From assembly GCA_050273025.1 (NCBI GenBank), contig CP158635.1:4278001-4342000 (forward strand): 64,000 bases of DNA, written 5' to 3'. A program made the translations under genes and the position numbers. The notes under the pieces are model-generated. The model was not told the origin of the DNA, did no database searches, and worked only from the letters and a program-made list of their open reading frames with translations. The stretch comes from Cenococcum geophilum (lineage: Eukaryota). Each line of letters begins with the position of its first letter. The stretch's first letter is position 1. Positions 9,074-58,090 of the stretch are shown piece by piece.

Positions 9074-9760
9074 ATACCTAAAGTAATTTCTTCTTTACAC
9101 GCCCAACGTCGTGCTCGCACTATTACCGCAATATTATCCCTTAGTAAGATTATACCGTCTCCATATTCTTATTATTTAAAAGAGGGGTTAGTTTATATTA
9201 CGTTGGCGAACCTATCTTTATAATAACCATCCTCTTACTTAAAGTATACTAAAGCGAATATTTATTTATCCTACGACGTTCACTTTACCTCTAATGCTAA
9301 ATATACGCGACCTATTATTCTTAATGGTCATCTAGTTCCCTAATTAATTTATCTTAGGGTCTCATATTTAATCTACTGCTATATAGCTAGATAGTAAACT
9401 ATCTTAAGCCCTTATTAAGTTAAAACGTTCTTAAAATGCGGAATAAAAGGCCCTAGATACTCGTATCGCGGCATCTGCTCATTTACTCCGTCTTAAAAAG
9501 GTTTATAAGAAGGTTTGTTTTAAGGAGTAGAAACTTATAAAATAGGGTTTATAGAAACTTAATAATAAAAGAACGGATTCTCTTCTAATAGAGAAGGAAA
9601 TAAATTTAAGTAGTTTGGCAACTGCTCTTCCTAAGTCCCTCTTAGGTAACTTATTCTTTAGTAATCCTTCTTTTTTAATACTGCCTAACCTAATCTCTTC
9701 CGATACTCCTATACCTTTCCTATAGCGTTCTTTAAATTTTTTAGTAGCTCTTAGGTAGTC
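9074..9760 (+). pseudogene. Antisense accessory gene of Gypsy-A1: six-Cys zinc-cluster-like domain, intron, coiled coil (RIP-damaged)
   Basis: In-frame ATA (RIPed ATG) at 9074. TAY codons spaced C-x2-C-x6-C-x13-C-x2-C-x8-C at 9164-9274. Predicted intron 9303-9357, then a heptad-like helix. 3' end approximate. Confidence 0.65.
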
Positions 9761-12700
9761 TTAGTATAACCTATCTACTTAACCTTATACTATATTTTAT
9801 TGTTAATATCCTTATAAATAATAATCTTTAAAACTTACTATTTATCTTTTTCTTATCCTCTATACGTGTCTACTTTGTAAACTAGTAGCTTAATATTCCC
9901 GTATACTGGCTCTAGCATTACAATGTATTATATAGAGTAGATCTTTATTTTGGCTAGTAGGTTTAACTTAAACGTAACTAGTAAAATTTCCTATGTAATT
10001 TTAAAAGGTCCTAGTCTAACGTAGTCTAACTTCTTACTTAGTCATTAACTCTTAAAATTTTTGTATAGTAGCTATACTTTATCTCCCTTCTTAAGATCTG
10101 GTCCCTTAGATCTCTTAGCATTATAGTACTTTTTTTATTCTCTCTTATACTTCTTTTACTAATTCTATAAGGTCTATATAAAGATTTATTAACGTCTTTA
10201 TTCTTTCTTTAGCTATACTATTTATTTTCTTTACTTACTATAGTAATAATAATATTCTTAGCTTATATCTATAATTTACCTTAAATAGTAATATGCCTAT
10301 TCCTTCTTAAGGTGTTATATTGTATATAAACTATATAACTAATAGTAACGATACCTAATTATTCTATATATAATTAATATAGTATCTTAGATACTACTCT
10401 AGTATCTAATTTAATCTTTCCGTCTAACCGTCTATCTGCGGATAATATACGGTAGAAGTTACTGCTCTAACTCCTTATTTTGCTAAGAATACCTCCTAGA
10501 ATACTGCTATAAATCTTAGATCTTTATCCAATATAATCTTATTTAATGCTCTATATTTTATAAATACTTCTTTAATATAGATTTTAGCGATATCTTCCGC
10601 TAATATTTCTTCCATATATGCTATAAAGTATCCCTACTTTATAAGCTTGTCTACTATTACTAAGATTATATTATAATTCTATCTAGTAATAGGGTTTCTT
10701 AACTTTAGCAACTTAATAATAAAGTCCTATAATATGACCTCCTATAGTCTCTCTAGTATTTTAATAGGTTATAGCCCTTTATATAGCTTATGCCTTATTA
10801 GTTTATTTCTTTAGCAATCTAGACACTTCTTTATAACCTTTCGCGTTAAGCCCTAGATTCTATTAATAATATACTCCTCTTAGAGTCTTAATACTAAGCC
10901 CATAGCTCTATTATATCCTTAAGTTAATCCCTTATAAAAGTCCTTTATAAATTACTCCGCTATGCTTCTTAGGATATACTTAGCTTCTTAGTTTTTATAT
11001 ATATCCGTCTATAGATCTTCTAGCTATACTTTTAGAATTTTCTATACCTAAAAGCTTTTTAGTATCTTATAAACTCTTTCTAGTTCTTCTTAAGTTGCTA
11101 TAATTTTTAGATAATTATACCTAATTAATCCGTCTGTATCTTTTTATAGTAAAGCCCCTAATAGCTTTTTATTATTTTATAGTTTAGCTTTTCGACTTAG
11201 AGCATCTACTTATATATTATCTATACCTTTAGTATACTAAATCTTAAAATGGTATTCTATAAGCATCTTTACCCATCTAACCTATCTTTAGTTAAGTTCT
11301 TTTATTATTAGGAACCCCATTAGGCTCTTATAATCTATCTTAACTATAAATAGTTTTTCTATACCTTATAAGAATACTCTCTATTTCTTTAGTGCTGTAA
11401 CTATACCTAATAACTCCTTATTATAGATGTTATAGTTTAACTCTAGTAGTATTATCTTTCAACTATAGTATGCCACTAGGTGCTATCTATCTTAATATTT
11501 TTATATAAAGTATGCCCCTAGTATATAGTCTAATATATCTGTTTCTATAACCGTCTTTAGTCCTAGTTAATAGATCTTAAGAACTAGCTCCTAGGTAAAT
11601 AACTCTTTAACTTTCTTAAAGAGTTTTTACTATTTCTCTTCTTATACCCATAGTTTCTCTTTCCTTATTAATTGCATAAATAGTTTAATATTCTTTAACC
11701 ACTACGCTATAAACCTTTTACAGTAATTATAAAACCATAAAAACAATCTTAATTACGTAACGTTCTCTAGTTCTTACTAATTCACTATAGCCTTAATCTT
11801 CTTTAGATCTATACTAAGTTAGCCTAGTTTAATAATAAATCTAACAAAATTAGTCTTCCTAGTAAAGAACTCGCATTTCTTAATTGCTACTAGCATCTAT
11901 TCTTCCTATAGTCTCTTTAAAACCTATTTAACGTATTCCCCGTAGTCTTCCTTAGTTATTAAGTAGATAATAATATTATTAAGGTATACTATAATAAATT
12001 TATCTAAGTGTTCTCCTAATATATTATTAATACGCTTTTAAAACGTTGCTAGTACGTTTATAAGCCTAAATTATATAACTAATAGTTTATATAGTCCTTC
12101 CTTTAACCTAAAGGCTGCCTTCTATTTATTGCCTTCCTTAATTCTAATCTAGTAGTACGCCCACCTTAGATCTATCTTTATAAAGATTTGCGCATTACCT
12201 ATCCTGTTTTAGATTTCGCTAATTAAGGGTAAAGAATACCTATCCTTTCTAGTAATACTGTTTAACTATCTATAGTTAATATATAGCCGTAATTTACTAT
12301 TCTTTTTTGGTATAAATAGTACTAGATAACCTGCTAATAACTGCGATAGTCTAATATATCCTTTTTGTAGGTTTTCCTAGACAAACTCTTTTAATACTCT
12401 ACCCTCTTCTTTAGTAAGCTTATAAATTAGAAAGAACCTTAGACTTATTCCCAGTTCTAATTCTATCTTATAGTCCTATACTATATACTTTAACAGCTTT
12501 TTACTTTTTAGTAACTATAGTTTCTTGCCGTACTTATAATATCTTTTTAGTATATAACTTAGTCCTTTTTCTATCTCTTTATAGGTCGCTCCTACTTAGT
12601 ACTATACTAACTTAGCTTATTATCGCAATTTATAGCGTTAAGTATCTTTAATATTGACCTAACCTATAATCTAATCGATTTTTAAATTATATTCCTGTAA

Positions 12701-15700
12701 CTAAGGCATTCCTAGTACTGCCTTATCCCGTCCTAATAGTAGGATATTAAAAGATATCTCGGTCCGTCTTCCTTTAATAGTTATTTAAATTGGTCCTATT
12801 TTAAGATTAATAATCCCTCCTCCGTAGGTTATTGGGTCTCCTAAAATTGTAACTAATAGGTAAGGTTACTTCTTCTATCTATACGGTAGCCCTATTCTCT
12901 TAACTACTATTAGTAAGATATAGTTCCTTATTACTCCACTATCTACTAATATTTTAAACTGTTAATCTTGCTATTTAACTTATAAATTTAGGTGTTGTCC
13001 TTAAATTCCTTTAAGAGTCTAAGGCTCTACTACTAGCTCCCTCTAGTTCTGTGGGCCTTTACTTTTCCTAACTATTAGCTACTTAATCCTGTTTATACTT
13101 AGTCCGTCTTTAGCTAATACTTAATTCGCTTTTTGTCCTTAATATACTATAGATACGTATTCTCTAGGCATTCCCACCACTATTATCTATCTAGGCATTC
13201 TTCCGTAAGGAATCTTTTTGGTTAAAGTATTAAGTTACCTAACTCCTAAACTTTTACTAGATGCTAGCTATGTATATACTTAGCGTTTTAATACTTCTAT
13301 TCTTCTGCTAACTAATATATTCTTATAGAGTATTTCCAATACTTACCTTTTGGTGCTTAGTGTATATTATATATATCGTCCACATATACAATCTATGCTA
13401 ATGTATAGTATGCTTAGTGCTTTAGGTTAACTCTTAGCTCGTCTTTATCCTTAAGTTTAAACCTCTCTCGTGTTAATCTAAACGTTATAACTTTATTTAT
13501 AGGTACTAAAATACATCTCTTGCTTCTCTAGTCCTTTAAACGCTCCTTTAGATCCTTTAATGTTATAATTAAGGCTCCCTTAATGTGACTTATCGCTTTT
13601 TTTGTAATTGGGTGGTCTTGGATAACTTTCTTATCTAACTATATATAGAAATCTTCCCACTTATCATTGTGCCTTTGCCTATACCACTTTTAGTATAGCT
13701 GCTAGAGTATATATGGCTCGTCCGTAAGGAAGTATCTTCTTATTACTATATCGTAATAGCCTTTAGTATATCGTTCCTTAAACCTAGTTAGAATCCCTAG
13801 ATCCTCTTCTTATTCCAGTTTAATAAGCTACTTAGCTCTTAGTATACCTGTTCTAAGCCTATTAGTAATTCTTTATACTAGCGCTCTGTCCCTTATATGT
13901 CCCAATATACTAGATCTCTTATCTAGTTTCTGCTCTTACTATGAGGTAATTCTTGCCCTAAATTCCTCTATGGTTTCTTTTTTTTCGCGTCTTATAAGTA
14001 GATCCTTAAAGTTTCCTTACTTCTTAATCTCAGTATTAATATTTCGATCTTTAGGCTAAACACTGCGTTCCCCTAGTAAGTCTTCTAGGTCTATATACCT
14101 GTCTCCCAGTCTAGTTACTATTTGTATTATAGATTCTCTAATCTATAAAGAAGCCTCTTGCCTCTTATTTATAGGTGTCCTTATTTATACTCTAAATTCT
14201 TAACCCTTTTAGATTTATAATCCTGAGCTTGCTTTTGTCTTAAGCTTTACTCCAGCCTTAGTCTAACTAGGCTTTCTTAGTATTCTTATCTCGTCTTAAA
14301 AATCTTAAATCTTACTCATCTTGTCTTAAAAGTCTTATACCTGTAGGAAACTCTATCCCGAGCTTATTCGTATATCTTTAAACTAAGCTACTACTCTACT
14401 CCATTAGTTATTGTCCGTTATAGGTCCTTAAGCTTGCCTTATCTCGTCTTAAGAATCTTAAGCCTTTAGCCTTTTGCCTTTATTAAGTGCCGAAATAGTT
14501 CGCTGCCCTACTTCTCTTACGTTTCGCGAGGTAATAGATATTATATCTAGTAGGGTCTTAATCCCTACTAATATTTCCTATTCCGTAGTAGAATTATCCT
14601 CTTCCTCTATTATATTATCTCTGAGGTCTACGTACTCCTAGTAAGCCGCTTTCGTTGCCTTATTATTATAAAATGTTTCACCTATATTAAAGTTATCGTC
14701 CTTAATATCCGATCTACGAACTAGTTTATTAGTTCCTTTATATTCCGCTAAATATAGCTCCTATAGCTAATAGCTTGCGCTATACTTAGCGTCCTTATAA
14801 ATTTAGTATACGTTGTTATAACAAAACGCGAAACTTCTAATTAAATACTCTTTTGTTCCTCGCAGCATATTATCGTCCCTCTATACGTATATATCGTTTA
14901 CTAGTCTCGTTCCTTTTACTATATAGTAACTCTAACCACTCTTATAGTCTCTAATATAATAACCCTATTTTCCGTAATTTATATAAGCTCCTTCTTTAAA
15001 CCATTTTTCTTGCTATAGAGTCCGCCTAAATATCTTCTACTATTAAAATCCCTAATTTAGCCTCTGCTCCTTAGACCTTTAATTACTTAATCCTTATCCT
15101 CTAGGTTTCTACGGTTTCTTACTCTATCCCTTATAGGCTTCTTTAGTACTACTTAGGTCTATTAGCTCTGCGCTATACTATAGTTTTTAACTTAGCTTTA
15201 GTCGTTATATATTCTACGCCTTATACAACTATAAAACTCTATCCTAGCCTCTCTTAGCCTATTCCCTTTAGTAGATCCGATTATTAATCTTAATTACTTA
15301 ATCTATTAGTTCCCTTAGGGTATCCGCATCTCCTATTAGGATAATCACGTCCTAGACTTTAGCCTTAAGTCCTTATTTGTACTATACTATAAGCGCCCTA
15401 TTATTCCACTTAACTTATATCGCTAACGTTTAGAACTGCGTTATGTACTTAATTGCTAAGGTTCGTTACGTAATATTTTAGAGTTTCCTCTTTACCATAG
15501 TTACTATCTCCGGGTCTCTAAATATCTATATTAATTATTTCGCGAACCCTTTCTAGCTTACGAATATAAATCGTACGTCTTAATTAATAGTTATTATGCT
15601 ATTCGCTTATATCTCCGTAAGGTAAGACTTAAACTACTTAAGTGCCCTCCCTAATAGGAATAGTCCCGTATACGCTATTTGATCTATAGGTGTTAATAGC

Positions 15701-18700
15701 TTAACTCCTTCTTATATAACCTTAAAGTATATCTGCGTAAGGAATCCTTTAAGCTTTAATCTTTCTCCTAAGTACCTTTTAATTAATAGTAGCTTAATCT
15801 TTGCTACTCCTATTCTATTAATCCTATTTTCTAACGTCGCATTATTTTCTATTAGCTAGTTAACTATCTCTTATAGTTGTCCGACTGTTATAGGTTGCTA
15901 TAAGTTAATATCTGCCATACTAGTGTCGTTACCTAACCTTAAAGTAGTTGCCGCCGTCAATAGCGTCGTAGCTGGTGCTTTTGGTGGCATATTATTCAAC
16001 TTTCTGTATTTAATACCGTAACTAGGTAGTAATTATATAACGGAACCTTATAGTAAGAACTATAATGGGCTTGTTAATGGGCTAGGTATATAGGTAATAC
16101 AAATTAAAGTTAACGACGAATAATAACTGGTAGAGTAGTTGCCTAATAGATTAACTCTAATTATATTCTAAAAATCACTATAAGGAAGGAACTATCTAGG
16201 TAGGGATTAAGGGTCCTTAAATACACAACCATACTCCTATAAAATCCTTCTTATATATAATATACGTAAGATATATAAGATACGTAAGTTTCTTTCGTTC
16301 CTCTCGTTTAATACATAGCATATTATATAACCTCGCTTACTATTCCTCGTCACATAATTCTACCGGCTCTATTCTGGACCGTGCCTAGATTAACTAACTA
16401 GCTTCTTCCGACTCCTCTCCTAGTAGTCGTAACATTGTACTTAAAGCGTCCGTAACATAGGATCCCATTGCTTCGCAATTTAATGACTTTTAGACTCCAC
16501 TAACTAGACCTACGTCCCTACTGCAGCCTGTAATATAACCCCTACCTCCTCTATCTTAATCTCAAATCGGAGGCAGTTTAAAATTGCTTATAGAGCTTAT
16601 GAAGCTCTACTCGGATTAGGAGAAGAAGTTTAGTAGGGAATTATATAATATTCTTAATTTAAAACTATGTATCTTCTATAAGTATTACTAGAAGGTAGGA
16701 ATAGAGTCTAATTAATACTATAACGCCTATTCTGTTATGCTTAAGGGCCAAGCTAGTACCTTCTATTATAATTATTTAGCAGGAAAAGAATACGATTTTA
16801 ACCGTATAATATATATATTAAGATACTACTTTAAAATAGAAGAGAATAAGTAGCAGTATATGTTAGAATAGAGAGAGACTACCTTTCTAAGGATTATTGC
16901 TATAAACCTAGGTATCCCTTAACTTAATTGTCTTTAAAAGCTCTTTAATTAACTTTAGATAATTTAGCGTGGTTTATCTAAATTATATTAAGAGGATTTT
17001 AGCCTACGTAATTAAGTTATTAGCGTATGCTAAGGCGTTAAAGAATACAATCTTGCTCTCTTTAATCCTGTAAATACTTACGAAGGAGTGTATACTTAAT
17101 TAAGATCTTTTATTAGCACCGCTTTACGCTCTTAAAAAGTATAGCAATTTAACGCCTAACTTTAACCTACTTTGATTGACCCGCCCAACTAATATAATTA
17201 TAACTAGACTAATTAAATATATAGTGGCCGTGGTAGGTAATACAATAGAGGGTATAACCAATAACTATAAGGTAAAGGTGGAGGTTCTTATAGAGGTTTA
17301 TTTTAAAGTAATTGCTAAAAGAAGTATTATATTTATAAGAAACCAAATTACTAGTTAACTAGGCATTCTCTTAATAAACAAAAGGAGGTATATAATAAGT
17401 TTCGCTAGAGTATAAGAAATATTAGAAATTATAAGGTTACTGCGGCCTACTTTTAAAGCTTCCTGGTTTAATATAAAGGCGTAAAAGATCTTAAGGGTAA
17501 GGTTAATGAGGCCGAATAGCTCCTTATAGATATAGAAATTAAGGACTACTTATTTAACCAATACTTTACTAAGTATGGTAAGGTAGATAGTATATAAACC
17601 GTTACTGTTTTTAATAACTAATCTACGCTCCATTCTATTATAAAGTTAGATATTTTTAATAAGCTAAAGGAGAGCTTTGCGTTCTCCTTTAACGACAGAT
17701 ACTTAGTAAATATCTTTTATAGTATTATGCCAGATACTAAAGCCGCAGAAGTATCTATAGTAGGAGAACCTTAAGTTCGAGCCCTTTAGCAGCTTAATAG
17801 CTCTATTTAGATTAACTATTTAACGGTAGGCTAATATACGATTTGTTTTAGCAAGGGTACTATAATCTCTTTTAGCATAATTAGGGTCTAAACCCTCTTA
17901 GGGTATATTACTTTCCACGTTATTCCTATAAATACTCCGTTTCTATTTTACATTAGAGATATAAATAAATTAGGCGTTAAGCTTAATAACTTTAAGAATA
18001 TACTTATATAGGGAGATAATCGGGTACCTATTATACGCAAGTAGGGTTACCCTTAGTTGCTCCTTTATTAACTAAAAAAGAGTATTACTTAAAGCCACCT
18101 AACTAAGTTAGAGTTACGTTAACTACACTATTATTTTAGCTACCTATCCATTTATTAATTACTTAGGGCTCTTTAATAAGTAGGCTATAAAGTTAAGGTT
18201 AAGGTAATTAAGCATCTTATAAAGTACTGCTATTACTACTAAATAAACTAAAAGTCCCCTAGCCGATTTAAGTTTACCCTTAAGAATAACTACGACTTTA
18301 ACTTCTATATTATTGTTAATGTTATATATCTTAGCGGTAAGCTAGTACTCTAAGTTATTAACTTCTTAACCTCCTTTTAAGCCGTACGATTCTTAAAGGA
18401 TATATTAGCAAGGAACGCATAGAATACCCTTTAATTATACTAGATTAATGTCTACCTAGGGCCCTTTAACCAAATCGTCTATAATATAGGAAAGAACTTC
18501 TTATCTTTAAAGTTTCGATAATAGATAAAAGTAATGGCAATTAAGGTTAAGAAAGTCCCTATTAAGGCATATAATAGTATTAGAAAAGTAGAGCGATATT
18601 ATATACTATTACGCCGCGTATATAAAATTATCTCTTTAAAACTAGAGGATACTAGCGAAGAACTTACCTTATAAATAGCTATTAAAGCCGTTAATAATTC

Positions 18701-21659
18701 TGCTGGCCCAGATAGACTTATACCTATATTACTAGTCTTTAGCGCCTACCCTTAAATAACTAATAATTCTTTACCGTTTCCCTCTATTATATAATAAGCT
18801 AAGGCTATTTATAAGGTAACGAAGGAGGTATAACGTCTCTACGCTATACGCTAGGTTAACGATATACTAGGAATAAAAAATGGTCTAAACACCTTAACTA
18901 CGCTTAATCTGCCACTTTAGTCTAAGGTACGCGTATAGCGTAAAAAGGGAGGATAGTTAGGCCTATATTAACTTATTATAATTAATAGTTAGACTTATAC
19001 TATTTAAATACTTTATAGACCTACTTAATTCCATTTAACTATTATTAAGCCTTACTATAAGGATAGCAGCTCTAAGCCTTTACAGGATGCCATAGAAAAT
19101 ACCCTAAAGAAGAGCTATAATTAACGTACTCTAGAAGGCAACTACGATTTTAATATAATTATAGTAGATACGCCGTAACCATAACGCGGTAGAGGTCGCC
19201 TAAAGGGATTACAAAATTGCCAACATCTTATTAATTTTAAAGAGTAATTTGTTGCCGCTATTAAGAATAGAGTTAAGCTATTAATAGCCTTTATAATAGC
19301 TAAGGAAAAGGCTAACTTTAAACTCGCAAAACAGCTCTAAAAGAAAGGTTGTATTCTAACTTTAGGAGCTCCTTTCTAAGCATCTAATAATTAGGAGATT
19401 AATAGCCTTATTACAAGAGAAGTCTTTAAATTTAAGAAGTATAACCCTACTAAGTTTAATAAAGTTTGCATCTTTATGTTAAGGATAGTTAATAAGATTA
19501 AGGGCAAAGCTACTAACGCCCTATTTAAGAAATTAAGGCTTATTATCTAAGGTTATAATAATAATAGTAAAGAGATAATTCTTATATAATCTCCTATGAT
19601 TTAACGAGCTAGTTAGCGAGTTATTATAGTATTAGCTCCCTCCTTAATAAAGAATAGAATAGTGGTTTATTTATAAAATATTACTTAAGCCTATACCTAA
19701 TTAGAGACGCACCTTTAGCGCTTAATATTAGCATACCTTCTAGAGTAAATTCGCTACTAGTATCCTAAAGATACGATTATAGTTATACTTAAGCCATTAT
19801 ATGGAATTATAAAGGCAGGAACTTACTAGTAGGCTACCTATAGCAAGTACCATAAAGAGAAGCTTTTAATAACTACTTTAATATTTAATCCCTACTTCCT
19901 TATTATAACCATAGGAACCCTATTTAGAATTGTTGGTATATAAACTAATAATATAATTATCTTAGGAGACGACTAATTCTTAGCTCTTAAAGAGGATAAG
20001 CTAGTAAAGGTAAATCTTATAGCAAAGCCAAAGGAAAAGCTTAATTTAACAACACTATTACTTTTTAATAGATGTATACTCTCCCTAAATAAGGATTCTA
20101 TTACTTTGCGCCAGAAGGGTTAAGGTAAAAAGATTAATATTATTAATATTAATTCCCTAAAGTAAGGATATATAGAGCAACGCGCTTATAGAGCTTATAT
20201 TACTTTTATCTGTTAACCTAAGGCTTTATTTAATCTCTCTATTGCCGCCTAACACCAGGAACTAACTAAGGATGACGTTCTTGCCCTAAATAAACGTCTT
20301 TCCTAGCAAATAAACTATCTTAATTAGGGACTACTCTACGTACCTATTAATCTTCCTACCGCTAAGCTCTTTATATTTGTTAATAGATCGTTTATAAATA
20401 ATAAAGATTTTAGCTCCTAGTTAGGATATAAGATTATTATTACAAACAAATTTACTAGAGAGAATAACTTTATAATCTATGGCAATTTTATTTATTAGAG
20501 CTTAACTAAGAGTAAGCGCGTTACCTAAAGTATTTTAGCGTTAGAAATATATGGAATAGTTAGCGGAGTTAATATAACAATTGCAATTGGAACTACCCTA
20601 AAGATAATTATAAATTAACTTAAACTTCCTATTATCTCTATAATCGTATATACTAACTTATATTCCCTCTATAAGTATTTAGTTAAGCTTAATACTATAA
20701 AGGAGAAGCGCCTTATAATTGATATTATGGCACTTTAGTAATCCTATAAGTGTTAAGAACTCTTTAAGATTTAATAGATTAATGGCTAAGATAACCCAGT
20801 AGATATAATAATAAAGGTAAACCTAAATAAGGCACTAGAGACGTTTGTTAACACAAATACTCTATATATATAAGTTAAAGGTTAGGTTAAAAGGGAGTCC
20901 CTAGAAATTTCTTAGTTATATAAGGTCTTAAGATATCTAGGAACTTTAACCAGCGGTTAAAGTTATCTAATTAGTTAGATTCTCTTACTAAGACTTTTTA
21001 AAAGGAGGGAGTATAACATTTTATAGACCCTAACTTAACCCAGCTAATTAGGATTTTCTATCCCCGGGATGGAAAATCGCTATTGGCTCGCTTACTACTA
21101 GCGCCTTGGCGGCCCTCCGAATAAGAGACTTACCTATAACTCCTAAGTAAGAGAGCACTACGTGCTAAGAGGCGAATTTTAGGACAGCGAGACTTATATA
21201 TTACAATGGCAATAGTAAATAAGGAGGATTTATATTTGTTACGCTAGTTAAGCAGTATTTGTATATAGATGGCAACTATAAAAGAAGAGTTGCTAGTGTT
21301 GGGAATAAGGCAAGCGGTCGTTACGTGCCGCCGCGGCACTAGCGTGGCGAGGAGTCTTAAGCTCCTCGCCCTTCCTTATTCCAATTAATAAGCTTTATTA
21401 ACTAACATCACTGTAACCTACTCGAGTAGTCGTTATTGGTGAGTTACCCTATATAACTAACAAACCAAGTTAAATAAAGTTGTAATTACTATAAGGTATA
21501 TAATGGGGTTATAAAAGTGACCCTAGTTGTAACCGCTCTACATTACCGCCTTCTAATTTAGGCTAGTTTATTGCCTAAATTAATATACTGCCGCTTTAAA
21601 CATTAATATATTAACTTTTCCCCTTACTTCCTTGCATAGGACTCCATATTACTAAAGCT

Positions 21660-46572: not shown

Positions 46573-49500
46573 ATGGCGGGCAGTAGAGGCAGATCACGGA
46601 AGACAGTGCTAGCTTCGCAGAGTACCAGTAGTGCGGCACGCACTCGAGGCACAAAGGGCAGGATCTCAAAGCAAGATACCGAAGTTCCGGAAGTCTTTCG
46701 AGACTTACTCTCGGAGGCAACAACTTCCGTAGTTGCTGGGGCTGATGAGGATAGTAAACCACTGAAGAAACGAAGGACAGCAAGAGGCATTATTGGAAAT
46801 GAAACCGACGATACGAGACAAAGCCCCGCTCCCAATATCCGAATTGCGCCCAAATCAACCTCGCCGGCGCCGACAGAAAGCGATCAAGAAATAGTGGATT
46901 ATAATTGGAATGCAAGGCTTCACACCGTTACAGATTATTCTGAAGAGTCAGATGAAAGTGAATTTGAATGGGAAGATGTAGGGCTAGGTCAAATTGAGGG
47001 CGAAGATGGAGAAACTACGCGAGTTGAGTCTCATATCGGGGATCTCTCGATCGTCATTGGAGATAACAAAGCTGGTAAAACAGTTACAAAGCAAGTTCGC
47101 CGGAAGGGTGTTACTGCGGCTGATAAAAGACGGAGACTTGATATTCATAAAGTGCACCTTCTATGCCTATTATATCACGTCCATCTCCGGAACGCTTGGT
47201 GCAATGATGACGGGGCCCAGGTACTTTTGAATCAGATTATATCGAAAGGCACTCTACGCTAATTTGCCTAGAACATTTTACGGAAGCTGCCTTCTCCAAA
47301 GATGCTCTCTGACCTTATTCCGAACCCCGAACATACTCAAGCCCAGGCCGCAAAATGCTTTATAAATGGTCTTCAAGCCATCAAAACGATGTGGTCGAGC
47401 AGATTCTCCATTACGGCTCTAGGCCTACATAAACCAAGATGGGCTGATAGTGAAGAAGTAGAGCAAGAAGTATGAACCTAATCTTCCTAGGAAATTCAAG
47501 TCTCATCTACTAATTCCAGGCGTACATTAGCTCAAAATTCTTGACAACCTTGACCCGCCTATGCAGCGTCTGGAGTTTAGAAAAGCTGCTAGGATACTTG
47601 AAGGATCTCAAGACGTTGGTACCCAATTGTTTTGTGCTCTTCTAAGAGCGATTGGGGTCGAAGCACGATTAGTATGCTCATTACAGTGCCTTCCTTTTGC
47701 TTCGATAGCACAGAATACACATCTTCAGACGCCGAAGATACAAAAGAATACTGTGATCCTGGATCCCTCCTTATCAGATGCATCTCCTATGAGCTCTAAA
47801 TCTGATGCAAACGCATCTACAGCCCCAACCATTCAAGCAGAGAAATCAGTAGCCCCGAGCCGACCTAAGCGAATATCAAGGCTAGGACAACTTGGTTCCG
47901 CCAGAAATCATGGATATGGTCTAAGCAAACCAGCTCCCCGTATGTAAAATTTAAGCGCCTTTAGCACGGTTGCATGCTGACATTTCTTCAGAGCCTAAGC
48001 CTAAAAAAATACATCATACCGCGTATCCAGTCTACTGGGTTGAAGCTTTCAATTCAGCAGTTCAAAAATGGGTTACGGTTGATCCACTTTCAACCTCTAC
48101 TGTTGACAAACCTGATAAATTAGAACCCCCACTAGGCTATCAGCAAACCGTATTAAGCTATGTCGTTGCATTCGAAGAAGATTCCGTTGCCAAAGATATA
48201 ACCCGGCAGTATGCGAAAGCATACAATGCTAAAACAAGGAGATCAAGAGTTGAGAGTACAGAGGGGGGTGCGAAATGGTGGAAGAAGGCTCTTAAAGTCT
48301 TCAGAAGAGGAACTATCCTTGTGAGCGAATACGAGATGTGGGTTTTAATTGGATCTAATCTTCATGTAGGACAGAGATCAAGTCGAAGACGCAGCACTTG
48401 CACGAAAAGAAGCCGCAGAAGGAATGCCGCGAAACGTCCAAGACTTTAAGGACCATCCTATATATGTGCTTGAACGCCATCTCAAACATAATCAGGTCAT
48501 TCATCCAAAGAAAGGAGTTGGAAAAGTCAACATTGGCACTGCTGCATCGAGCAACATGGAGTCAGTTTATCGGAGGCGAGATGTCCATATTGTGAGAAGT
48601 GCTGATAAATGGTACCGCCTTGGACGGGAAGTCATGGTAGGCACTACATATGGGTCAATATCCAGTAAATACATTAACGGGCAAGCAGGACGGCGCACAG
48701 CCCCTGAAACATGCAAAGCGACGAAAAAGAACTCGCCACTCTCTAACGCCACAGGCCATAGATCCCGAAGATGATGTGTGTGTCGGCCTTTATGCAGCGT
48801 TTCAGACGGAGCTCTACGTCCCTCCGCCTGTCGTTCGGGGTCGAGTTCCTCGCAACGCTTATGGTAACCTCGACATTTACGTTCCGTCTATGATCCCGAA
48901 AGACGGCGTCCACGTTCGCTCACCTGACGCTGCAAAAGCTGCTCGTATAGTAGGAGTGGACTATGCAGATGCCGTTACTGGATTTCAATTCAAAGGTCGT
49001 CACGGTGCTGCCGTCATACAAGGAATTATAGTGGCGAGTCAGTATCGCGAAGCCGTCGAAGCCGTCATTCACGGATTTGCATACATGAAAGAAGAAGCAG
49101 AGAACGCTCAGCGAAGCGCCGGGGCTCTGCGGCTGTGGAGGAGATTTCTCATAGGACTGCGAATTGCCCAGAGAGTGAGAGGTTACGAGATCGACGGGCA
49201 AACAGCTGATGTCCAACAAGAGATAGACAGTATTGAGGACGAGCTTACTGAACGGTATCAAGCTGGCGGCTTCTTCCCCGATGCTGGTCCTACTGAGCCA
49301 ATGAGACCCATTACAAGAACCGTAAATTCGGGTCTCGCATATGGGGGTGATTACGGCGGTGGTTTTATTCCCGTAAAAGCCGATGCTTTTGAGGGTTCTA
49401 TGGATGAGCGAGATCTAGAAGCTCACGAGTATGCCCAAGAAAATGGTGGACAGCATGTGGACCCCGTCACAAAACATGATATGGGAGAAGGTTTTCTTCC

Positions 49501-50002
49501 TGAAGATAGTACTGGAGAGGATGGTGGCTTCACACGTGAAGAGTCTGCACCCGAAAAAGTAAGAGGAGAGCAAGCAATGCCCCAAGAAGCTTCAGTCCTA
49601 GATTTGAGTATGGCCGGTGGGTTTCTAGTAGAAGTAGGTGATTTTGCAGATTCAAGCCGCAAAGTCGATACTACGGAGCCAACGGCATTAGGATATAACG
49701 GACATTCCGGCCGCACGTTACGAAGTCAGAGTCCCGCTCGGGAGAAACCAGGGCATATTTCGACAACGAGGTCTTTGTCGGCTGATGCGATCGAAGAAAA
49801 AACTTATTCCTCTGCAAGAGAATCCACCGCATCACCCGACTTAGAAGCACAAACGTCAGAGCCAAATGTTTCAAAATCACCACCACGCCTTCCCGACCTC
49901 GTCAAGGTAGATACAAGTGATGATGACAGGGACTCTTTGCCGTCTAACGACCCTGAGGATGAGGATGCAGACCCGGACTGGCTAGTCTGTCTTACTGATT
50001 AA
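46573..50002 (+). CDS. RAD4: Nucleotide excision repair damage sensor Rad4/XPC, about 1054 aa; exons 46573-47220, 47272-47469, 47531-47939, 47992-48320, 48370-48636, 48689-50002
   Basis: Rad4 motifs across the ORF fragments: HKVHLLCLL..RNAWCND, LFCALLRAIGVEARLVCSLQ, YWVEAF..WVTVDP, KDITRQYA, FKDHPIYVLERHLK, VPRNAYGNLDIY, DYADAVTGFQF. Five GT-AG introns with branch sites join in frame (3165 nt including stop). Confidence 0.93.
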
Positions 50003-50227
50003 TGACTTGGGTATATTTGGAAGATTTTGTATCGTCAATGAGACCACTGGAATGCCAAGCTCACTGCTGCGAACGCTTGTATAAAGATATCCTCGCCTCG
50101 ATTACTCTACCTGATAGAGTATAAAACTAAAGTAATTATCACAATAAATTTGAGCTCTCATACTTGCAACTGGCTTTTTACTACCCTCATCTACCCCTTC
50201 TGCAATAATATCAAGTTCTTTGTAACC

Positions 50228-50560
50228 ATGGCACCGCGACTTCCTCATTGACCACCCTTTTTCCCGCTATACCCTCAACGAGTGAGTCCTTTTATTCGAC
50301 CACTCAGCACCACTCCTATGCGACAGCTAAAGGAAGACACAGACCGCGGCGGCCATGAAATTGGGGCAAAGAAACAGGAGTATCCGAGAAAGCAGAAAAG
50401 AGGCGAAGGACATTGGCACGAGGTATTAGGGGGCTAATGCGAGAGCCATTTCAAGGCAGACCAACAAAATGTCAACGATCATGGAGGCATATGGAAGAGT
50501 TGCAGCAACAAACGAAGAAGGCTAGCGAGGAAGGGAGGTATCGATACGGCTATAAGCGAG
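50228..50560 (+). pseudogene. Disrupted small gene resembling a conserved fungal hypothetical protein with a mitochondrial presequence-like N-terminus
   Basis: Stitched reading MAPRL..RPLSTTPMRQLKEDTDR..AKKQE..KQKRGEGHWHE.L..ESHFKAD..MEELQQQTKK needs several frameshifts and crosses an in-frame TAA (~50435). Family recognised from memory only. Confidence 0.5.
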
Positions 50561-50756
50561 ATGGTGATGGGTGATGGGTGACGAGTGTATAATATGATGA
50601 CATTCTTGGAGTGGGATAGTGTCTTGATAGTGAACATTGCATGACTGAAGTTCGCGGCTTTACATTTCTGGGGAACCGCGGCTTTCTTACAGCTTCACCT
50701 CCGTCAGCTGTCAAACCAAGACGTCGAGATCTAATGCGGATTTCTGTTTCAAGCAT

Positions 50757-51649
50757 TATATACTCGTTAAGCCGATTGCTCTCCTAAGGCAATCTAACGT
50801 ATTTAGAAGAAAATAAGGCTATATAGAAAGATAAGGCTCGGTTGCGAATATAAGTTAAAACGTATATTAAATAACGAGATAATTATCGCATTGCTCTACC
50901 GACTAGATAAGGCTCCGCACTTATATCTTAATAAAATAATATAGTTTATCTATAATTAGTTCTAGGTAGTTATTAGTAGGTAGATACTTAGTGTAGAATT
51001 AAGAGTTACTAGCTAGAGCTGGAAGCTAGTAAGGAAGCTTTTATAGGCGTATATATAGAAGTTGCTAATTATATATAAGGCTCGCCGAGTTGCCTATAAG
51101 CAAAGCTAGGAGGATTATACCTTATTCTAAGCTATAATCTCGCAGTTTACTATTAATTAGTTAGTATTTATAGACGAATCTAGAGCTAACTTAAAGATAG
51201 GTATATAAAAGGCGTTTTAGTTATTAGTGGGAGTTATACTAGTTCTATATATACTATATAATCGTAGTAAGCAGCGAGTTAATATACTACTTACCTATAC
51301 TATTAACGGTGTACTAGTATTATTAGTATATACTAGCTTAATAAATTTAGAGGGCTATAACTACTAGATTAAGCATATCCTCTTACCTTATTATAATCCT
51401 TATCTAAAATTAAGATTAGTAGTTATTATAGCTAACGCGAGCTTTTATTACTTAGCCTATATTAGCTCCCTCTTTAAGCGAGCCGGTATAAAGCTTATAT
51501 ACTTACCTAGATACTCGCCCAATCTAAATCTAATTAAGAAGTTCTTTAATAAGCTAAAGGAGTTTATTTAATAATATTTTACTATATAAAAGGAGGCGCT
51601 AAAGTAATAGGGTAATGGCTTTAATAGCTTTTTAAGTTAGTATATAGAG
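50757..51649 (+). pseudogene. Tc1/IS630-type (DD34E) transposase fragment, RIP-decayed, cut at the 3' side
   Basis: De-RIP LYLDEM (~50921), FIDESG (~51167), xNASFH (~51431) and LPRYSPDLNPIE (~51502), with 34 residues between the second D position and E. No TIR seen. Confidence 0.85.
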
Positions 51650-52016
51650 ACGAGAAATAGGCCAGATTTTCCAAGGAAAATTTCCTCCTTACCGACTTAC
51701 AGCCGGCAATTCGGTCCTTGGAGAAATTTAGCCTATTTCTCACGCCTGCGGCGGGCCTCCGTCCCTTTAAACTAAGTGCTGCTATACTACTATCCTCTAC
51801 TACCTACTACTGCCCTACTACTATAGAATTTATATAGTTACCTCGTGGTAACGTAAGGCTGCCTTTATATAATAATCGCGTGATATAGATTTATATAGTT
51901 AATTACATAACGTATATTAATAATAGCTATTTACGTTGTTATTGTTATTGTTATCTTCTTCCTTAAGTAATAGCACCACTATTACTACCACTATTAGTAC
52001 TGCTGCTGCTGCTGCT

Positions 52017-55000
52017 ATATCGTCTACTCCTGCTCCTACTACCGCTGCCGTTCTTACTACTGCTGCCGCCCCTACTCCTACTCCTACTCCTACTCTAGCT
52101 CTACTACTACTACCACTATATTACTACCGCCGCCGCCACTACCACCATATCTGCGCCCAGCTGCCGCTTTTTATCTATACCTCTGCTATCTTAGGCCGAG
52201 TAGCCTATATATAGGACTTCAGTCCCAGCAGATAAGCGTACTAGTAAGTATTAGTACTATAAAAGAATTTAAGAATTTAAGAAGATACTAATATATAAAT
52301 AGCTGCTGTAGCTATAGCTGCCGCTAGGCCCCTCCCCACTCCTACTACTACCGCCGCCGCTACTACCGCCGCCCCCGTCGCTCTCCCCCCAGCTAGCTTT
52401 ACGGCCGTTAATTAGCCCGCCGCCCTCCCGCTCTAGAATCCCTTACCTATTATACTTACTACTGCTACTAAAGCCGCCGCCGCTAACACGGCTATAATAT
52501 AGGCGTTGTATCCCCTACCGCGTATTTAGGGCGTATCTTTATAGTAGGCTTTTAGCCTAGGTAGAGCTTCTAGGGTCTACTAGGGGGTCTGCTTAAAGGC
52601 TAGGGCCTTAAATACAAAGGCCGCCCTAGCGTAAAGCCGGGGTATAATAGCCTTATAGGCTTATACGTTATATATATAGGGCGGTAGCCCATTTATAGAG
52701 TTGTATGCTAGTTGCCGGCTAGCTACGCAGCAGCTATACTAACTGCTATTATAGTAGTAAAGGGGCACACTACTCCTTTTAAGTCTGTAAGTTAGTAATA
52801 TAAGCTATAAAAAGTATAACTAATAGAGATAATAGCGTCTACTACCGCCGCCCCCCCCCCCCCCCCACTATAGTCCGCTCCCGCTCCCGCTCCTACTCCT
52901 ACGCCTATATACCTTCTACTGCCACCACCGCTAATAATAATAATAAAAATAATAATAATAATAAGGAGGGGTGTTAGAATTAAGCGAGAGATACTAACTA
53001 AGCTCTGGACATATTGCGAGAATAAAGTCCGTATATAATCTATATAGACATTAACTACATCTACTATATCACGAATCAATTAATATTCATCATCTACGTT
53101 ATCTCTATTATTAATTAGACCCTTAAGATAGCTTCACTGTGACCCTATAACCTTATAATTCTAACAGGTTATAAGCCCAAGTAGTAATACCTCTCCTAAC
53201 TCAAAAATTAACCCCTAAAATAACCTCCTCTACCTTAACCTTAACGACACCTATATATAATTATAAGGCCGGTAAAATTGTTATTTTTAATAGAGATAAC
53301 TTTATAGACTAGGAGCGTACCTACAAGGCAGCCCTAATTATAGCAAAAGGATAGGATTTTGTTACTAGTATAGAGGACCTAGCTTAAGTTAATTCAGCTA
53401 ATAGGAGAAGGAGAAGGGGGGAAGCAAATAAGATTATCTATAATTTGATAGGAGACGACCGTTAGGAAGAGATGCGTGTGATAATAAAGGCGTATAATAT
53501 TTAGGGAATATAGGAAGGAATAAAGAAGTTTAATAAGGCTAATAATAAGGTTTATATCTTTAGACTTCGCAGGGAGTTCTATAGCACTATATTTAACCCT
53601 ATAAACATACAAATCATTAAGTTCCTTTATATACTAAATTAATTTAAGACCAATCTAGCCTTAATATCTTAAGCACTTACTAATAATAATATTAAAGAGC
53701 AACTCCTTCTAGCCCTACTAAGCAATATTATATAGTAAAATGCGAAGACCTAGTGTCTACAAGACAAACGAGACCTTAAGAGCTACATTACCCTTCTTTA
53801 GGAGTAAGAGACTACTCTCCCTATATAGACTACTACACTTATATATAAGAGGAAAGACGAACCTAGGGGAGAAGGGGAAACTGAGGTTAAGGTTAAATAA
53901 GGGGTAGAGGTTGTACTAGTAGATTTAATTATTCCTTATTACATTATAGCTTATCATCTTAAGTAACTAAAGAGCTAAGATAACTAGAAAGAGATGAGTG
54001 CAGAATATACTATCAGAAAGGTCACTACTAGAAAAACTATCCCCTGCTTAGATAATTCCAATTTAATAACGCTAGGAAGATAGATTAAGGTGCTCCTAAG
54101 GCAGAAGAAGTAGGGAATATAGTAATAGCTAAGGACAAATTTAATAGCAATTTAATTTACCTTAACCCTAACCCTAAATGTGCTATGCTTATAATAATAT
54201 CCCTAGCTTAGGTCCTTAACTTAGGTGCAACTAAGTACTTTACTAGTAACTAATCAGACCTAGTATACTTAAAGAGATGGAATATACCTTAAGAGATCCG
54301 TACTGCGAATGGAATTATTATCCCTGCTATAGGCTATAGCTAAGTTTAAATTGGTAGCCTAAGGCTAAAAGACGTCTGGCTTATACCTTTGTTTAAAACA
54401 ATTAAGCTAATCTTAATAAGGACTCTTACTTAAAAAGGCTACTTAATTACCTTTAATACAGACAATTAAGCTACTAGTTAGCATAAATTAGGGGCGACAT
54501 TTAAGGCTACTATAAAGAATAACCTTTACGTACTATAAGAGCCTTAGGAAGCATTTAATGCAATAGCGGAAGTATATAATTTATAATTAAACGTTAATAA
54601 AACGGATGCTAGACTATAGTATTGCCGAACTAGATATACAAACTACAGCGACCTATTTAAGCTATAGCACTCCTTACTAGGCATACAGCTTAGAAAGAGA
54701 GTAGTACTAGTTAGTAAGAGTATATGTAAAGCTTATCTAGCTAGGAAGATGCGAGAAATACTAAGCAAGAAGACGATTAAGCGTGAGAAGATACCTAGTT
54801 AAGGGCTATATCTTAATACTACGGGACAAATTAGTATATTAATTAGAGGCTATAACTACTACCTACTAGCCCTAGACAACGCCACACGCTATACCTAAGT
54901 TATTTCTCTTAAAACCCTATAAACTAAAGAAGTACTACCGCATATTAAAGAAACTATTATAAGGGTAGAGAGATTTACTAGGACTAAAGCTACATGGATT

Positions 55001-58000
55001 TGAGCGGATAATAGAAAGGGGGAGTTCAGCCACAGATTCTAAGATAAATTAATACCCTAAGGTATTAACTTTAAGCCTTGCCCGCCATATAAGCACTTAT
55101 ATAATAGTATAATTAAGCGCGCGATTTATACAGTTGACTATAAAATAAGGTTACTTTTATTTTAAGGAAATATACTAGTTAAACTCTAGTGCTATACAGT
55201 TAAATACGCTGTCTAGATTAAGAATCGAGTACTAACCTTAGCTCTTCCATTTAACGACAAGCATAGTAGTGCTATTATACCCTACGAGGCATATACCCAA
55301 CAAGTCCCTAACCTTAAAAATCTAGTTATCTTTAGGTGTTATGCTAACTCAATAAATACGCTTAAGAAACACCCTAGGAAGTATAACTCGCAGATAAGAC
55401 CTAACTACGTCTTTATAGGATTAAAAGGGAGTAGTTAATTTAAGATAATAAACCTGCATACCTAAGTAATTAAGCTATTTAAAGATACTAAAGTAAATAA
55501 GTATAGGTTCCCTTTTAGAGCACCTTAAGTATAAGCTACGAGATATAGTAATTAAGCAAAACGCTTAGATTAAGATTAAGCGGGATGCTTAAATTACGCT
55601 ATAAGCTAAGCCGCGAACTGACTTAGACCTCCCCCTACTACCTTAAACGGGCTAATAGAGACTCTAGTTATAAAAACTAAGAGTAGGCCAGATAGTAACT
55701 AAGTAGGCCGCTTAAGCTAAGTGGGAAGCCTAGGTTAAGACTAAATAGGCTACTTAAATTAAGTGGGAAGCCCAGGTTAAGATTAAGTGGGACGCTTAAA
55801 TCTATAAGGTAATACTTAAGGTAGGACGCCTATATAAAGCACATTAATACGCATTCCTTATATGCAGAGAATAAGGTCTAAAAGGTTACCAAATATAAGG
55901 GTTTTTAACGATACGGTAGTTTAGTTAGTAATAGCTATAAAAGCTATTTACCTAGAAGCTAAGAATACTACCTCCTTAGGAGCACCTATAGCACCATTTA
56001 ACGCTATTAAGCTAGATTAGGCCTTAAGGGAGGACGCTCCTAGCTAGATAAAAGCTATCTTTAAAGAATTTCTCTTTCTTAAGAGAATGCACACCTATAC
56101 TATTATAAGGGGGACAGTACTAGAAGGAAGGTTATTACTCCTAAGTAAGCTAGTTTTAAAGCACAAGTATAACGCTAAGGGAGAAGTAATTCGCAAGAAG
56201 GCAAGACTGTGCATTTGGGGAGATAAGTAGACCCCTAATATTAACTATTTTAAGACATTTGCGTCTGTTATACAATATAACACCTTCAGGTTCTTAATAG
56301 CAAAGGTAGCAGCTAAAGACCTTAAGCTTAACCATATTGACGTTAAAACTGCATTCTTAAACCCGCTATTATAAAAATAGATATATATATAGATTCCTAA
56401 CCTATTAAGAGACTTTAAACCTAACCTTAAGGGGGTAAAAGATGTCTACTTAAAGCTAAATAAGTTACTTTACGGCCTAAAGTAGGCACCAAGAGAATGG
56501 TTTTAAATAGTTAAGAAGTTCTTTAAGAGTATAGGTTTAGAAGTAGCTAATGCTGACCCTAATCTCTTTATAGGAAATGAAGTATATATCTTACTATTTG
56601 TTAACAATATACTAATTGTAGGAAAGCGCTAAGACCTTAATATTACAAAGATAAGAATTTTAAAAGAATGGAGATGTAAAGACCTAGGCCCTATAGAGGT
56701 ATTTATAGGCTTCCAAATTAATTAAGATTATATAAATTAAACCCTTAAACTATATTAGACGATATATACTAAGAAGCTACTTAAATAGCTAAAAATAGAC
56801 AACTGTAATCTGGTTAAGCTACTAATACTAATAGGTACTGTTCTAAAGCCTAATATTAAAAGTCCCCTTAAGTATAACAATGCGACAGTATGCTAATAGA
56901 TTATTAGCTCTATAATCTACCTGTTAAACTATATACGTCTTAATATTAGCTATACTATTAGTTAGTTAGCTAGATTTATAGCAGCACTAGGAGAATTGTA
57001 TTACCGCTTAAGTAAGCAGCTACTATAATATCTAAACGGCACTCTCAAAATTAGAATTACCTACTTAAATTAAAAGATCTACCTCCCCTTATATAAGCTT
57101 ACGTTAACTAACTTACCTATTAGCTATAGTATCTTTACTAACGCTATTTAGGGAACAGAACACAATTAGATATTATTCTAAGGTATAGCAGTTATATGCT
57201 ATAGGGGAGCTGTAATCTAGATGGCTTAAAGGCAGAAGTTAATAGTATTGAGCTTAATAGAAGTAGAGATCATAGCAGCGTTAGAAGGAGTAAGGTTAGC
57301 AGTATAGCTTAAAAAGCTAACGAGAGATCTAGGGGAGAGAGATAACGACAACCCTTTTATCCCTATACTCTACTGTAATAATAATGGTATAGTTAACCTT
57401 TTGTACGATATAAAGCACCACTAGAAAGCTAAGCATATTAAGACTTAATACCTCTTCGTACGAAACGATATGGTTTAGCAAGATTGACTTAAAGTGGTAT
57501 ATATACTAGGTAAAGATTAACCTAGAGATATGCTTATAAAACAGCTACTAATTAACCAATTTATGAAGTATTGTGTAATGCTAGGAATCGGTAACTAACG
57601 GAGCAAGTGATAGAGGTTTTTTGCCTACTATAGGCTTTCCCTCCGTATGTAGGCCAAATGGCGCTTGCAAGGTATTTGGGAATAGCTTTATAATTGCCTA
57701 TTTAGGAAACAGACAAGCAGACAAGAAGAGCGTCGTCAGCATAGGGGAGTGTCAGAATTAAGCGAGAGATGCTGACTAGGCTCTGGACATATTGCGAGGA
57801 CGAAGTCCGCATGCAATCTATATAGACATTAACCGCATCTACTGCATCACGAATTAATTAATATTCATCGTCTGCGTCATCTCTATTATTAATTAAACCC
57901 TCAAGATAGCTCCGCTATAACCCCATGACCTTGTAATTCCAACAAGGGGGAGAAGTTAGAGGAGTTAGAGGGAGCCTTGCCTACCTATATTTATTTCTAT

Positions 58001-58090
58001 TTTAGGCGGCGCGGGCGGATTATAGGGCTACTCCGCCGTTTGGCGGCGGTTCTTAAGGAGGAGTTATTAGAGGATAAGGATAAGGAGTAG
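52017..58090 (+). pseudogene. DUF3716-like Cys-rich gene convergent with RepHel; RIP-damaged and split by Copia-C
   Basis: De-RIP NAEAALAQSRG.....ACTSC.QGGGPF..CVLVAGQLRGSCANCHY..EGARCSF at 52611-52779 (one +1 frameshift). Introns 52244-52302 and 52787-52835 (GTAAGT...ACTAAT...TAG). Acidic tail resumes after the Copia-C TSD and ends at TAG 58088-58090. Start codon uncertain. Confidence 0.75.
52972..57944 (+). mobile_element. Copia-C: classical Ty1/Copia retrotransposon, RIP-decayed
   Basis: 195-bp LTRs at 52972-53166 and 57750-57944, TSD AGGGG, GGTTAT(G>A)AGCCC right after the 5' LTR, purine tract before the 3' LTR. Motifs DSGA (~54218), RADNGKGEF (~55002), FVDD (~56597), KHIETRY (~57431). 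Confidence 0.95.

Follow-up and report, generated by a model that had tools for sequence, protein, structure and literature searches.

Antisense six-cysteine accessory genes of a Gypsy element and a Helitron in Cenococcum geophilum, and enrichment of the word CCGTAA in DUF3716 Helitrons

Introduction

A close described counterpart of one of the genes treated here is brtn, an antisense gene of the Ty3/Gypsy element Boty (BcGypsy1) of Botrytis cinerea and Sclerotinia, reported as of unknown function (PMC7264820, PMC8365987). The present work concerns a 64,000-nucleotide stretch of Cenococcum geophilum DNA (GCA_050273025.1, contig CP158635.1, positions 4,278,001 to 4,342,000; hereafter the window, C1 4278001–4342000 of a genome of 178 Mb in 7 contigs), in which a Ty3/Gypsy long terminal repeat (LTR) retrotransposon and a Helitron each carry an antisense accessory gene for a protein with six Cys, that of the Helitron belonging to the family DUF3716 (PF12511). 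Like the Gypsy gene of the window, brtn is an additional gene of a fungal Gypsy element, placed antisense between pol and the 3' LTR and present in most copies; the two were likened by position alone, a six-Cys domain not being mentioned for brtn in the available text of PMC7264820 and PMC8365987, and a search of two supplements of PMC8365987 for the BRTN sequence gave no match.

DUF3716 genes were described as REP9-1 and REP9-2 of REP9/Styx, an IS3EU-like DNA transposon of Zymoseptoria tritici (PMC8232023; also PMC10853768, PMC13004909), where REP9-1 lowers spore-body formation (PMC8232023). There, as here, they are accessory genes of a fungal transposon; they are expressed, and are killed by repeat-induced point mutation (RIP) in sister species; REP9/Styx differs in being a cut-and-paste element with two such genes, and no Helitron, cognate word or zinc-cluster reading is proposed in the accessible part of that paper (PMC8232023). 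Other labels (GATA, CCHC, DUF3577) are given to the Styx genes in PMC10853768, and the available text of PMC5225507 names PF12511 solely as a strain-specific gene. TET/JBP genes of fungal DNA transposons and Helitrons likewise form one accessory family spread across superfamilies, with a proposed counter-silencing role; in contrast to DUF3716, a small non-enzymatic domain, they encode an enzyme and, as far as the available text goes, never occur in retrotransposons (PMC12730594). Transposon-encoded activators have been reviewed (bioRxiv 10.64898/2026.08.24.746577).

In Arabidopsis VANDAL elements (PMC5735166), VANC21 and VANC6 are element-encoded accessory proteins and a short word is enriched in the cognate element; their DUF1985/DUF287 domains, the tandem arrangement of the words in non-coding DNA and the demonstrated removal of methylation set them apart from the present case, in which the word CCGTAA is dispersed in coding DNA. 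The unrelated element AT9TSD1 carries VANC6 words (PMC5735166), as a Copia element of the window, lacking a detected accessory gene, carries CCGTAA; the Copia fits a host factor equally well. With regard to DNA binding, PSC58, a DUF3716 protein of Fusarium graminearum, was called orthologous to Neurospora crassa NCU05718 (PMC10776026), which directly bound double-stranded TTAGGG repeats, its binding domain being left unidentified in the accessible text (PMC4650311). Probable DNA binding by DUF3716 is supported, since the orthologue of one of its members binds double-stranded DNA of this kind (PMC10776026, PMC4650311).

A literature search, with most subscription journals and the Repbase reports outside its coverage, found nothing published on DUF3716 genes of Helitrons, on a zinc-cluster-like reader role of this domain or on a cognate word. 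Already in print are brtn in Boty, the DUF3716 genes of REP9/Styx and the cross-superfamily sharing of an accessory family (TET/JBP); the CCGTAA enrichment in DUF3716 Helitrons is new.

Results

Identification of the two genes: The window consists of nested AT-rich repeats around two host genes; the repeats bear the stops and the C-to-T/G-to-A changes that fungal RIP typically leaves. Frames of the damaged elements were read with X at stops and then submitted to Pfam; reverse transcriptase and RNase H were found on the minus strand at 9.7–16 kb, PIF1 and Helitron_like_N on the minus strand at 58.4–62.9 kb. Two accessory genes with outer bounds at 9074 and 58090, proposed in an earlier note on the same DNA, are real with near certainty, as shown by Cys/Tyr columns and splice sites in other copies; both are antisense to the transposition genes and face them, as that note had it, pol and Rep/PIF1 being on the opposite strand. 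An exact CxxC..CxxC scan of the window found neither gene, and a Cys-or-Tyr pattern with stops allowed occurred at 7 places in its six frames (a count without shuffle control). The six Cys cannot be demonstrated from the window alone because its copies were killed by RIP; the other copies settle the matter. Features of the Helitron are as follows.

51648–62900, minus strand: Helitron, RIP-damaged (ends of about 30 copies align; parts joined in uninterrupted copies)
52147–58090, plus strand: DUF3716 gene of the Helitron (PF12511 in sister copies; intact relative at metagenome locus L124; introns spliced in RNA contigs)
58400–62900, minus strand: Rep/helicase frame of the Helitron (PIF1, E 1.9e-34; Helitron_like_N, E 2.1e-22)
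52972–57944, plus strand: Copia interrupting the DUF3716 gene within exon 3 (target duplication AGGGG)
58126–58289, no strand assigned: solo LTR between the stop of the DUF3716 gene and the helicase end (repeat family D6; gap in copy alignments)

Accessory gene of the Helitron: The element was recognized as a Helitron by Rep, PIF1 helicase and a sharp 3' end with a subterminal hairpin; this end, at about 51648, reads CTCG instead of the usual CTRR, and the 5' end is approximate. The element end at about 51648 being sharp, the DUF3716 gene lies inside the Helitron; copies of the family join window 51.6–53.0 kb to 57.9–58.1 kb and the helicase end without interruption. The three-exon antisense gene starts at 52147, has introns at 52244–52302 and 52787–52835 and an exon 3 in two parts (52836–52971 and 57950–58090), and ends with a stop codon at 58088–58090; its Cys pattern is CX2CX9CX10CX2CX8C. 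In the window copy the six-Cys region (about 52663–52774) has a frameshift near 52703 and keeps 2 of 6 Cys; owing to frameshift and RIP this copy falls below Pfam detection, and E 3.6e-4 was obtained with a home-built profile. Cys/Tyr counts at the six codons of 30 Helitron copies: 5/25, 7/23, 16/14, 8/21, 20/10 and 16/14; intron in the same copies: donor GT in 15 and AT in 15, acceptor AG in 28 of 30.

Sister copies scored up to 63.8 bits and intact relatives 65–67 bits against PF12511 (cut-off 22 bits). The genome gave 31 matches, and 24 of the 30 loci cut out belong to this Helitron family, in agreement with the expectation that such genes occur chiefly inside transposable elements (TEs). 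All six Cys are invariant in 25 DUF3716 relatives of 38–77% identity; these sequences speak against neutral evolution and indicate that the Helitron gene is under selection.

At metagenome locus L124 an intact three-exon DUF3716 gene faces an open Rep/helicase frame of 1337 aa. Contigs of four runs were placed on L124 (X4 and X5 recorded as RNA, from two studies; X1 and X6 guessed to be RNA): intron 1 is skipped at GT..AG in contigs of X4 and X5, loose contig ends with the sequence of the exon 2–exon 3 junction were read by eye in X1, X4, X5 and X6, and unspliced contigs also occur. Contig depth was greater on the accessory gene than on the helicase end; contigs cannot rank genes, and the runs had been found with the accessory gene. 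Among the own-genome Helitron copies, one contains an open frame of 753 aa without a known family (L198:2215–4473), and another (L224:5800–9900), with little damage in Rep/helicase, lacks a DUF3716 gene within the stretch retrieved.

The word CCGTAA: CCGTAA is enriched beyond codon choice through the body of the DUF3716 Helitrons L124, L161 and the own-genome family. In the intact Rep/helicase frame of L124 there are 16 sites (4.1 expected; 300 synonymous shuffles, maximum 10), in that of L161, an intact frame of 1483 aa with TA/AT 0.89, there are 19 (3.5 expected; 300 shuffles, maximum 9; z 8.4). With protein identity of 734/1319 between the two, only 4 sites are homologous; the sites lie in several frames and on both strands. 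Four control frames showed no CCGTAA excess over shuffles, their best words still reaching z 4–6.

Sites were further counted in a RIP-aware manner, i.e., aligned, present in at least 2 copies and not explicable as RIP products of a GC-richer word; copy numbers differ between the families so compared. DUF3716 Helitron family (12 copies): 26 sites, 4.8/kb, rank 3 of 604 CG words, after two GCC-run words; Helitron family without detected DUF3716 (7 copies): 3 sites, 0.37/kb; Copia of 27.4–33.5 kb (15 copies): 53 sites, 8.8/kb, rank 1 of 604. Against the 26 sites of the Helitron and 53 of the Copia, words of the same composition average 1.4–1.8 sites (maximum 7–9). The Copia elements of the window concerned are:

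27443–33490, plus strand: CCGTAA-dense Copia, accessory gene not detected (word counts)
23910–26106, minus strand: internally deleted derivative of the preceding Copia (repeats and word counts)

Counts in the window: Helitron 58290–62900, 12 vs 3.8 expected; Copia 27443–33490, 19 vs 4.0; its derivative, 10 vs 2.0. Several inverted CCGTAA pairs 7 nt apart occur in this Copia, a high-copy element (1368 first-look candidates in the genome), and in the derivative. Elsewhere in the window CCGTAA is rare, namely in the other Gypsy and in two further Copias; the Copia at 52972–57944 showed no excess of it. No six-Cys gene was detected in the latter Copia, nor in the other Gypsy or any of the three Copias. 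In 20 host loci, 23 sites stood against 17.6 expected. A short word enriched in the cognate element, as known for VANC, was thus found for the Helitron only and weakly for the Gypsy, so that the earlier suggestion of cognate binding has a candidate word on the Helitron side and no clear word array on the Gypsy side. Tandem words in non-coding DNA were not found: the 16 sites of L124 and 19 of the 26 of L161 lie in the Rep/helicase frame. DUF1985/DUF287 gave no Pfam match in the accessory proteins scanned. A fixed palindromic spacing of CGG triplets was rejected (observed in L161 and the Copia at a spacing of n=1, absent from own-genome Helitrons).

Accessory gene of the Gypsy element: The corresponding features are as follows.

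8714–16457, minus strand: Ty3/Gypsy element A, RIP-damaged, pol on the minus strand (Pfam RVT_1, RT_RNaseH, SH3_Tf2-1; LTR repeats D5, D10)
9074–9725, plus strand: accessory pseudogene of element A, about 198 codons (Cys/Tyr columns; transversion codon-position bias; two-piece P0050 matches)
33489–41353, plus strand: Ty3/Gypsy element B, inverted second copy of the element A family, 82–89% alike (inverted repeats I1–I9)
40255–40906, minus strand: accessory pseudogene of element B, 1 of 6 Cys kept (copy comparison)

The gene faces the end of pol from the opposite strand and comprises exon 1 (9074–9302), an intron (9303–9357) and exon 2 (9358–9725); its start codon at 9074 was altered by RIP to ATA. 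The six Cys codons (9164–9274) are in exon 1 in the pattern CX2CX6CX13CX2CX8C, followed by a long helix assigned to exon 2. The window copy at 9074 has Tyr in 6 of 6 candidate Cys positions. Cys/Tyr counts at these codons: 5/27, 10/22, 2/30, 4/29, 20/13 and 5/28 (33 rows, the window copy being counted twice); 69/86, 70/88, 34/125, 49/95, 78/65 and 63/64 in 159 database relatives, 2 of which keep all six Cys. Other Cys-bearing codons of the alignment derive from Arg codons, unlike the six candidate columns.

A deep profile search gave 240 representatives at 50% clustering. No named relative was found among the matches listed, names having been checked for 9, for the best 150 of 240 and for the best 120 of 561; most relatives bear apparent RIP damage, and many could originate from this species or a near one. 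A first scan of metagenomes gave no match. Pfam gave no relevant family for 9 relatives and the window copy. The approximately 3000 first-look candidates in the genome are not to be taken as a copy number.

Transversions were used for the selection test because RIP does not make them. In exon 1 of 15 more divergent genome copies (14 hand-picked from 152 matches and one further; all rows were set against one reference and hence are not independent) they numbered 70/1086, 29/1087 and 168/1087 at the three codon positions (6.4, 2.7 and 15.5%), and indels in the same copies were multiples of three by eye. Such a bias, which argues against neutral evolution, indicates purifying selection on the gene. 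The intron is inferred from the GT donor (3 of 15 divergent copies), the AG acceptor (15 of 15) and the relative P0050, which aligns to the genome as two pieces about 45 nt apart. It would begin 9 codons after the last Cys, that of the Helitron gene beginning about 4 codons after; an intron soon after the sixth Cys, as proposed earlier, would be common to both.

About 35 nt upstream of the start, CCGTCT at 9038–9044 is kept in 9 of 10 copies, and TCCGTCT was seen by eye upstream of the gene in 7 of 14 divergent copies; it may be a promoter element or a site of self-regulation. The 3' LTR of element A is in two parts (2573–2752 and 8714–8965), between which another Gypsy family lies at 2753–8713, with neither space nor signal for an antisense gene, an internal control. 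Copies A and B, inverted relative to each other over 7.7 kb, are separated by 17 kb, and copy B interrupts the Copia rich in CCGTAA (27443–33490) within its 3' LTR.

Relation of the two domains to each other and to Gal4-type clusters: The earlier claim of one shared Cys domain holds for the six Cys, the CX2C ends and X8; the spacings differ, being 2-6-13-2-8 in the Gypsy and 2-9-10-2-8 in the Helitron protein. Both regions span 37 residues. Profile comparison placed five Cys in register without gaps at a probability of 1.6%; with RIP tyrosines masked, all six aligned (12.6%; score 19.75 vs 12.2 ± 2.7 in 60 shuffles keeping the Cys columns, 1 of which attained it). The Gypsy protein gave no PF12511 match (0 of 9 relatives, nor the window copy). 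These are two different families, related at most remotely.

The usual spacing of Zn2Cys6 (PF00172) is CX2CX6CX5-12CX2CX6-8C. For 12 proteins, and with a 15-sequence profile, no match to Zn_clus (PF00172) was obtained; a host Zn_clus profile matched over one half only (7% for each domain, 45% for the masked Gypsy profile). PDB sequence searches gave nothing below E 0.05, and in the ESM Atlas only unnamed ascomycete clusters stood under 0.9. The DUF3716 model (predicted local distance difference test, pLDDT, 83–87 in the core) has a helix behind each CxxC pair; it gave no match by Foldseek or VIA-align, where small zinc domains score poorly, so that this is no evidence against a zinc-cluster fold. 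In the P0050 model the helices behind the CxxC pairs are of low confidence (cluster pLDDT 54–57) and a 60-residue helix is confident; the fold search matched coiled coils only, over residues 42–110. Two CxxC halves, a helix after each pair in the models and the long helix after the Gypsy cluster are shared with fungal Zn2Cys6 (Gal4-type) factors, while the missing Pfam and structural matches, other loop lengths and one-half profile matches distinguish them; by sequence neither domain could be placed in the Gal4 type, and a fold of this type is possible.

DUF3716 genes in other elements: Rep/helicase and DUF3716 genes face each other in nine of 54 metagenome loci with DUF3716; six of the nine, drawn from two assemblies, are similar to the own-genome family, and L161 and L169 are distant and intact. 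DUF3716 lies beside same-strand Helitron-type genes in L158 and L163, faces a Mutator-like element (MULE) transposase in L142 and is divergent from a Plavaka transposase in L165; most remaining loci are too short to judge. In the own genome, a hAT element has a same-strand DUF3716 gene downstream of the transposase (L205:4389–7966, L206:2091–5668; CGTACG 2 and 3 sites vs about 0.4 expected), and at L203:5000–9900 a DUF3716 remnant faces a gene of DUF3723, a Starship-associated family. Since hAT, MULE, Plavaka and same-strand Helitron contexts also occur, the antisense layout is common and not a rule. The notion of one architecture reached convergently was not supported: DUF3716 is one family shared across TE classes in several orientations, and the Gypsy domain is a separate family. 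In a DUF3716 tree (33 rows, 85 columns) 8 of 30 branches were well supported and element genes stood apart from single loci, weakly; class-to-class transfer cannot be demonstrated from it.

Remaining features of the window: A second solo LTR (61191–61562) interrupts the Rep/helicase region of the Helitron. Tandem arrays of 4-nt and 20-nt units lie at 63270–63990, past the Helitron 5' region; the block recurs in L230 beside a Copia copy. RIP-damaged Tc1/pogo-like transposase remnants were seen by eye at 21480–23450, 44000–45200 and 50800–51640, the last abutting the Helitron 3' end. An intact 175-aa frame at 626–1153 is presumably an RNase H1-like gene, and the intact multi-exon host gene at 46381–50002, flanked by repeats, is one we take to resemble Rad4/XPC.

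Discussion

The accessory proteins probably bind DNA; the chances are even that each element encodes its own small DNA-binding regulator, and the case for the own element as the target is evenly poised. The antisense spliced gene at the 3' end would encode a small zinc-binding, probably DNA-binding regulator, the six Cys of which may form a two-fold zinc cluster like that of Zn2Cys6 proteins. The Helitron protein would recognize CCGTAA, which has on its other strand CGG, the usual half-site triplet of fungal zinc clusters, and may, by way of its acidic tail, act in trans so that the element stays open or transcribed. The Copia without an accessory gene would have gathered CCGTAA and ride on the Helitron protein or a host protein of similar specificity. 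The Gypsy protein, a cluster plus long helix in a Gal4-like layout, would be a separate family with probably fewer sites, perhaps in the promoter or LTR only. Anti-silencing in the VANC sense, drawn by analogy, is rather doubtful.

Several observations weigh against such element-specific regulators. CCGTAA was picked after looking, and its spacing is irregular (gaps 11–567), so that a nucleosome-like periodicity was rejected on inspection of the gaps. The densest array is that of the Copia without a detected accessory gene, and the host gene region 46300–50700 has 6 sites vs 1.6 expected. Many DUF3716 loci have no CCGTAA excess, among them L169, an intact convergent DUF3716 Helitron (3 vs 2.1), where CCGGAA is found instead (23 vs 10.0). 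The excess in Gypsy A is weak (9 RIP-aware sites, 1.2/kb, rank 7 of 604; 10 copies), and a word lattice in the Gypsy was rejected, the CCGTCT sites being clustered on one strand. In the Gypsy gene, divergence of the intron does not exceed that of exon 1 (0.068 vs 0.082), a point against the intron itself. Three stop-free single DUF3716 loci (L039, L042 and L047 on C6) may be host or domesticated genes and could read CCGTAA. RIP load is alike near and far from CCGTAA (0.645 vs 0.650; 0.732 vs 0.702), and 149 of 150 scored Rep matches contain stops.

Of the alternatives, CCGTAA as the site of a host factor exploited by several TEs survives best, though it is on the unlikely side; the six-Cys proteins would then act otherwise, as an integration guide, as an aid to Rep or the particle, or on host genes. 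The dense array of the gene-less Copia is what it would predict, and the weak excess extends to the Gypsy (7 vs 3.5 and 8 vs 3.2); action on host genes is favoured by the change in pycnidia number upon REP9-1 expression in Zymoseptoria (PMC8232023) and by the developmental roles described for host DUF3716 proteins (PMC10776026). A general host site agrees poorly with the rarity of CCGTAA in the second Helitron family, the other Gypsy and two other Copias of the window, and with the related words that mark other DUF3716 elements (CTGTAA in L142, 16 vs 3.7; CCGGAA in L163, 18 vs 4.5), as expected if specificity drifts with the own protein.

It is improbable that the accessory genes are real and unrelated to a CCGTAA excess produced by RIP funnelling, codon use or inheritance. 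In the own-genome Helitron family 22 of 48 sites do fail the RIP-aware test, and top words of control genes reach z 4–6 by chance; the excess nevertheless survives that filter and, in L161 with its intact frame, synonymous shuffling, and words of the same composition remain far below it. Highly improbable is a third account, in which captured host zinc-finger genes are carried passively and antisense transcription, rather than the protein, matters. Helitrons capture genes, stop-free single loci exist in the genome, and the copy at L224 goes without the gene; this account is opposed by the codon-position bias and in-frame indels among Gypsy subfamilies, by the invariance of Cys and the open frames that accompany intact Rep/helicase genes of distant Helitrons, and by the separation of element genes from single loci in the weakly supported tree. 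Shielding of the own elements from RIP, as one form of the modulation suggested earlier, can hardly be right, since RIP load near CCGTAA is not lower, the Helitron family without DUF3716 is not more mutated (0.564 vs 0.651, with different copy numbers and selections) and every sampled own-genome copy is damaged.

Extended to other elements, the preferred reading of element-encoded regulators leads to a tentative and somewhat unlikely proposal: ascomycete TEs of several classes may share a mobile module of a DUF3716 reader and a CG-containing word in coding DNA, co-diverging and countering silencing, which the gene-less Copia would parasitise and of whose fold the Gypsy protein would be a distant offshoot. 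In plants, sequence-specific counter-silencing by TE-encoded readers is an established phenomenon; proposals for fungi are limited to the TET/JBP enzymes. If true, a small reader with a predictable binding word, common to Helitron, hAT, MULE, Plavaka and IS3EU-type elements, would supply a function for DUF3716 and an explanation for brtn, REP9-1 and similar antisense genes, and cross-class freeloading between TEs would become testable by a single binding assay.

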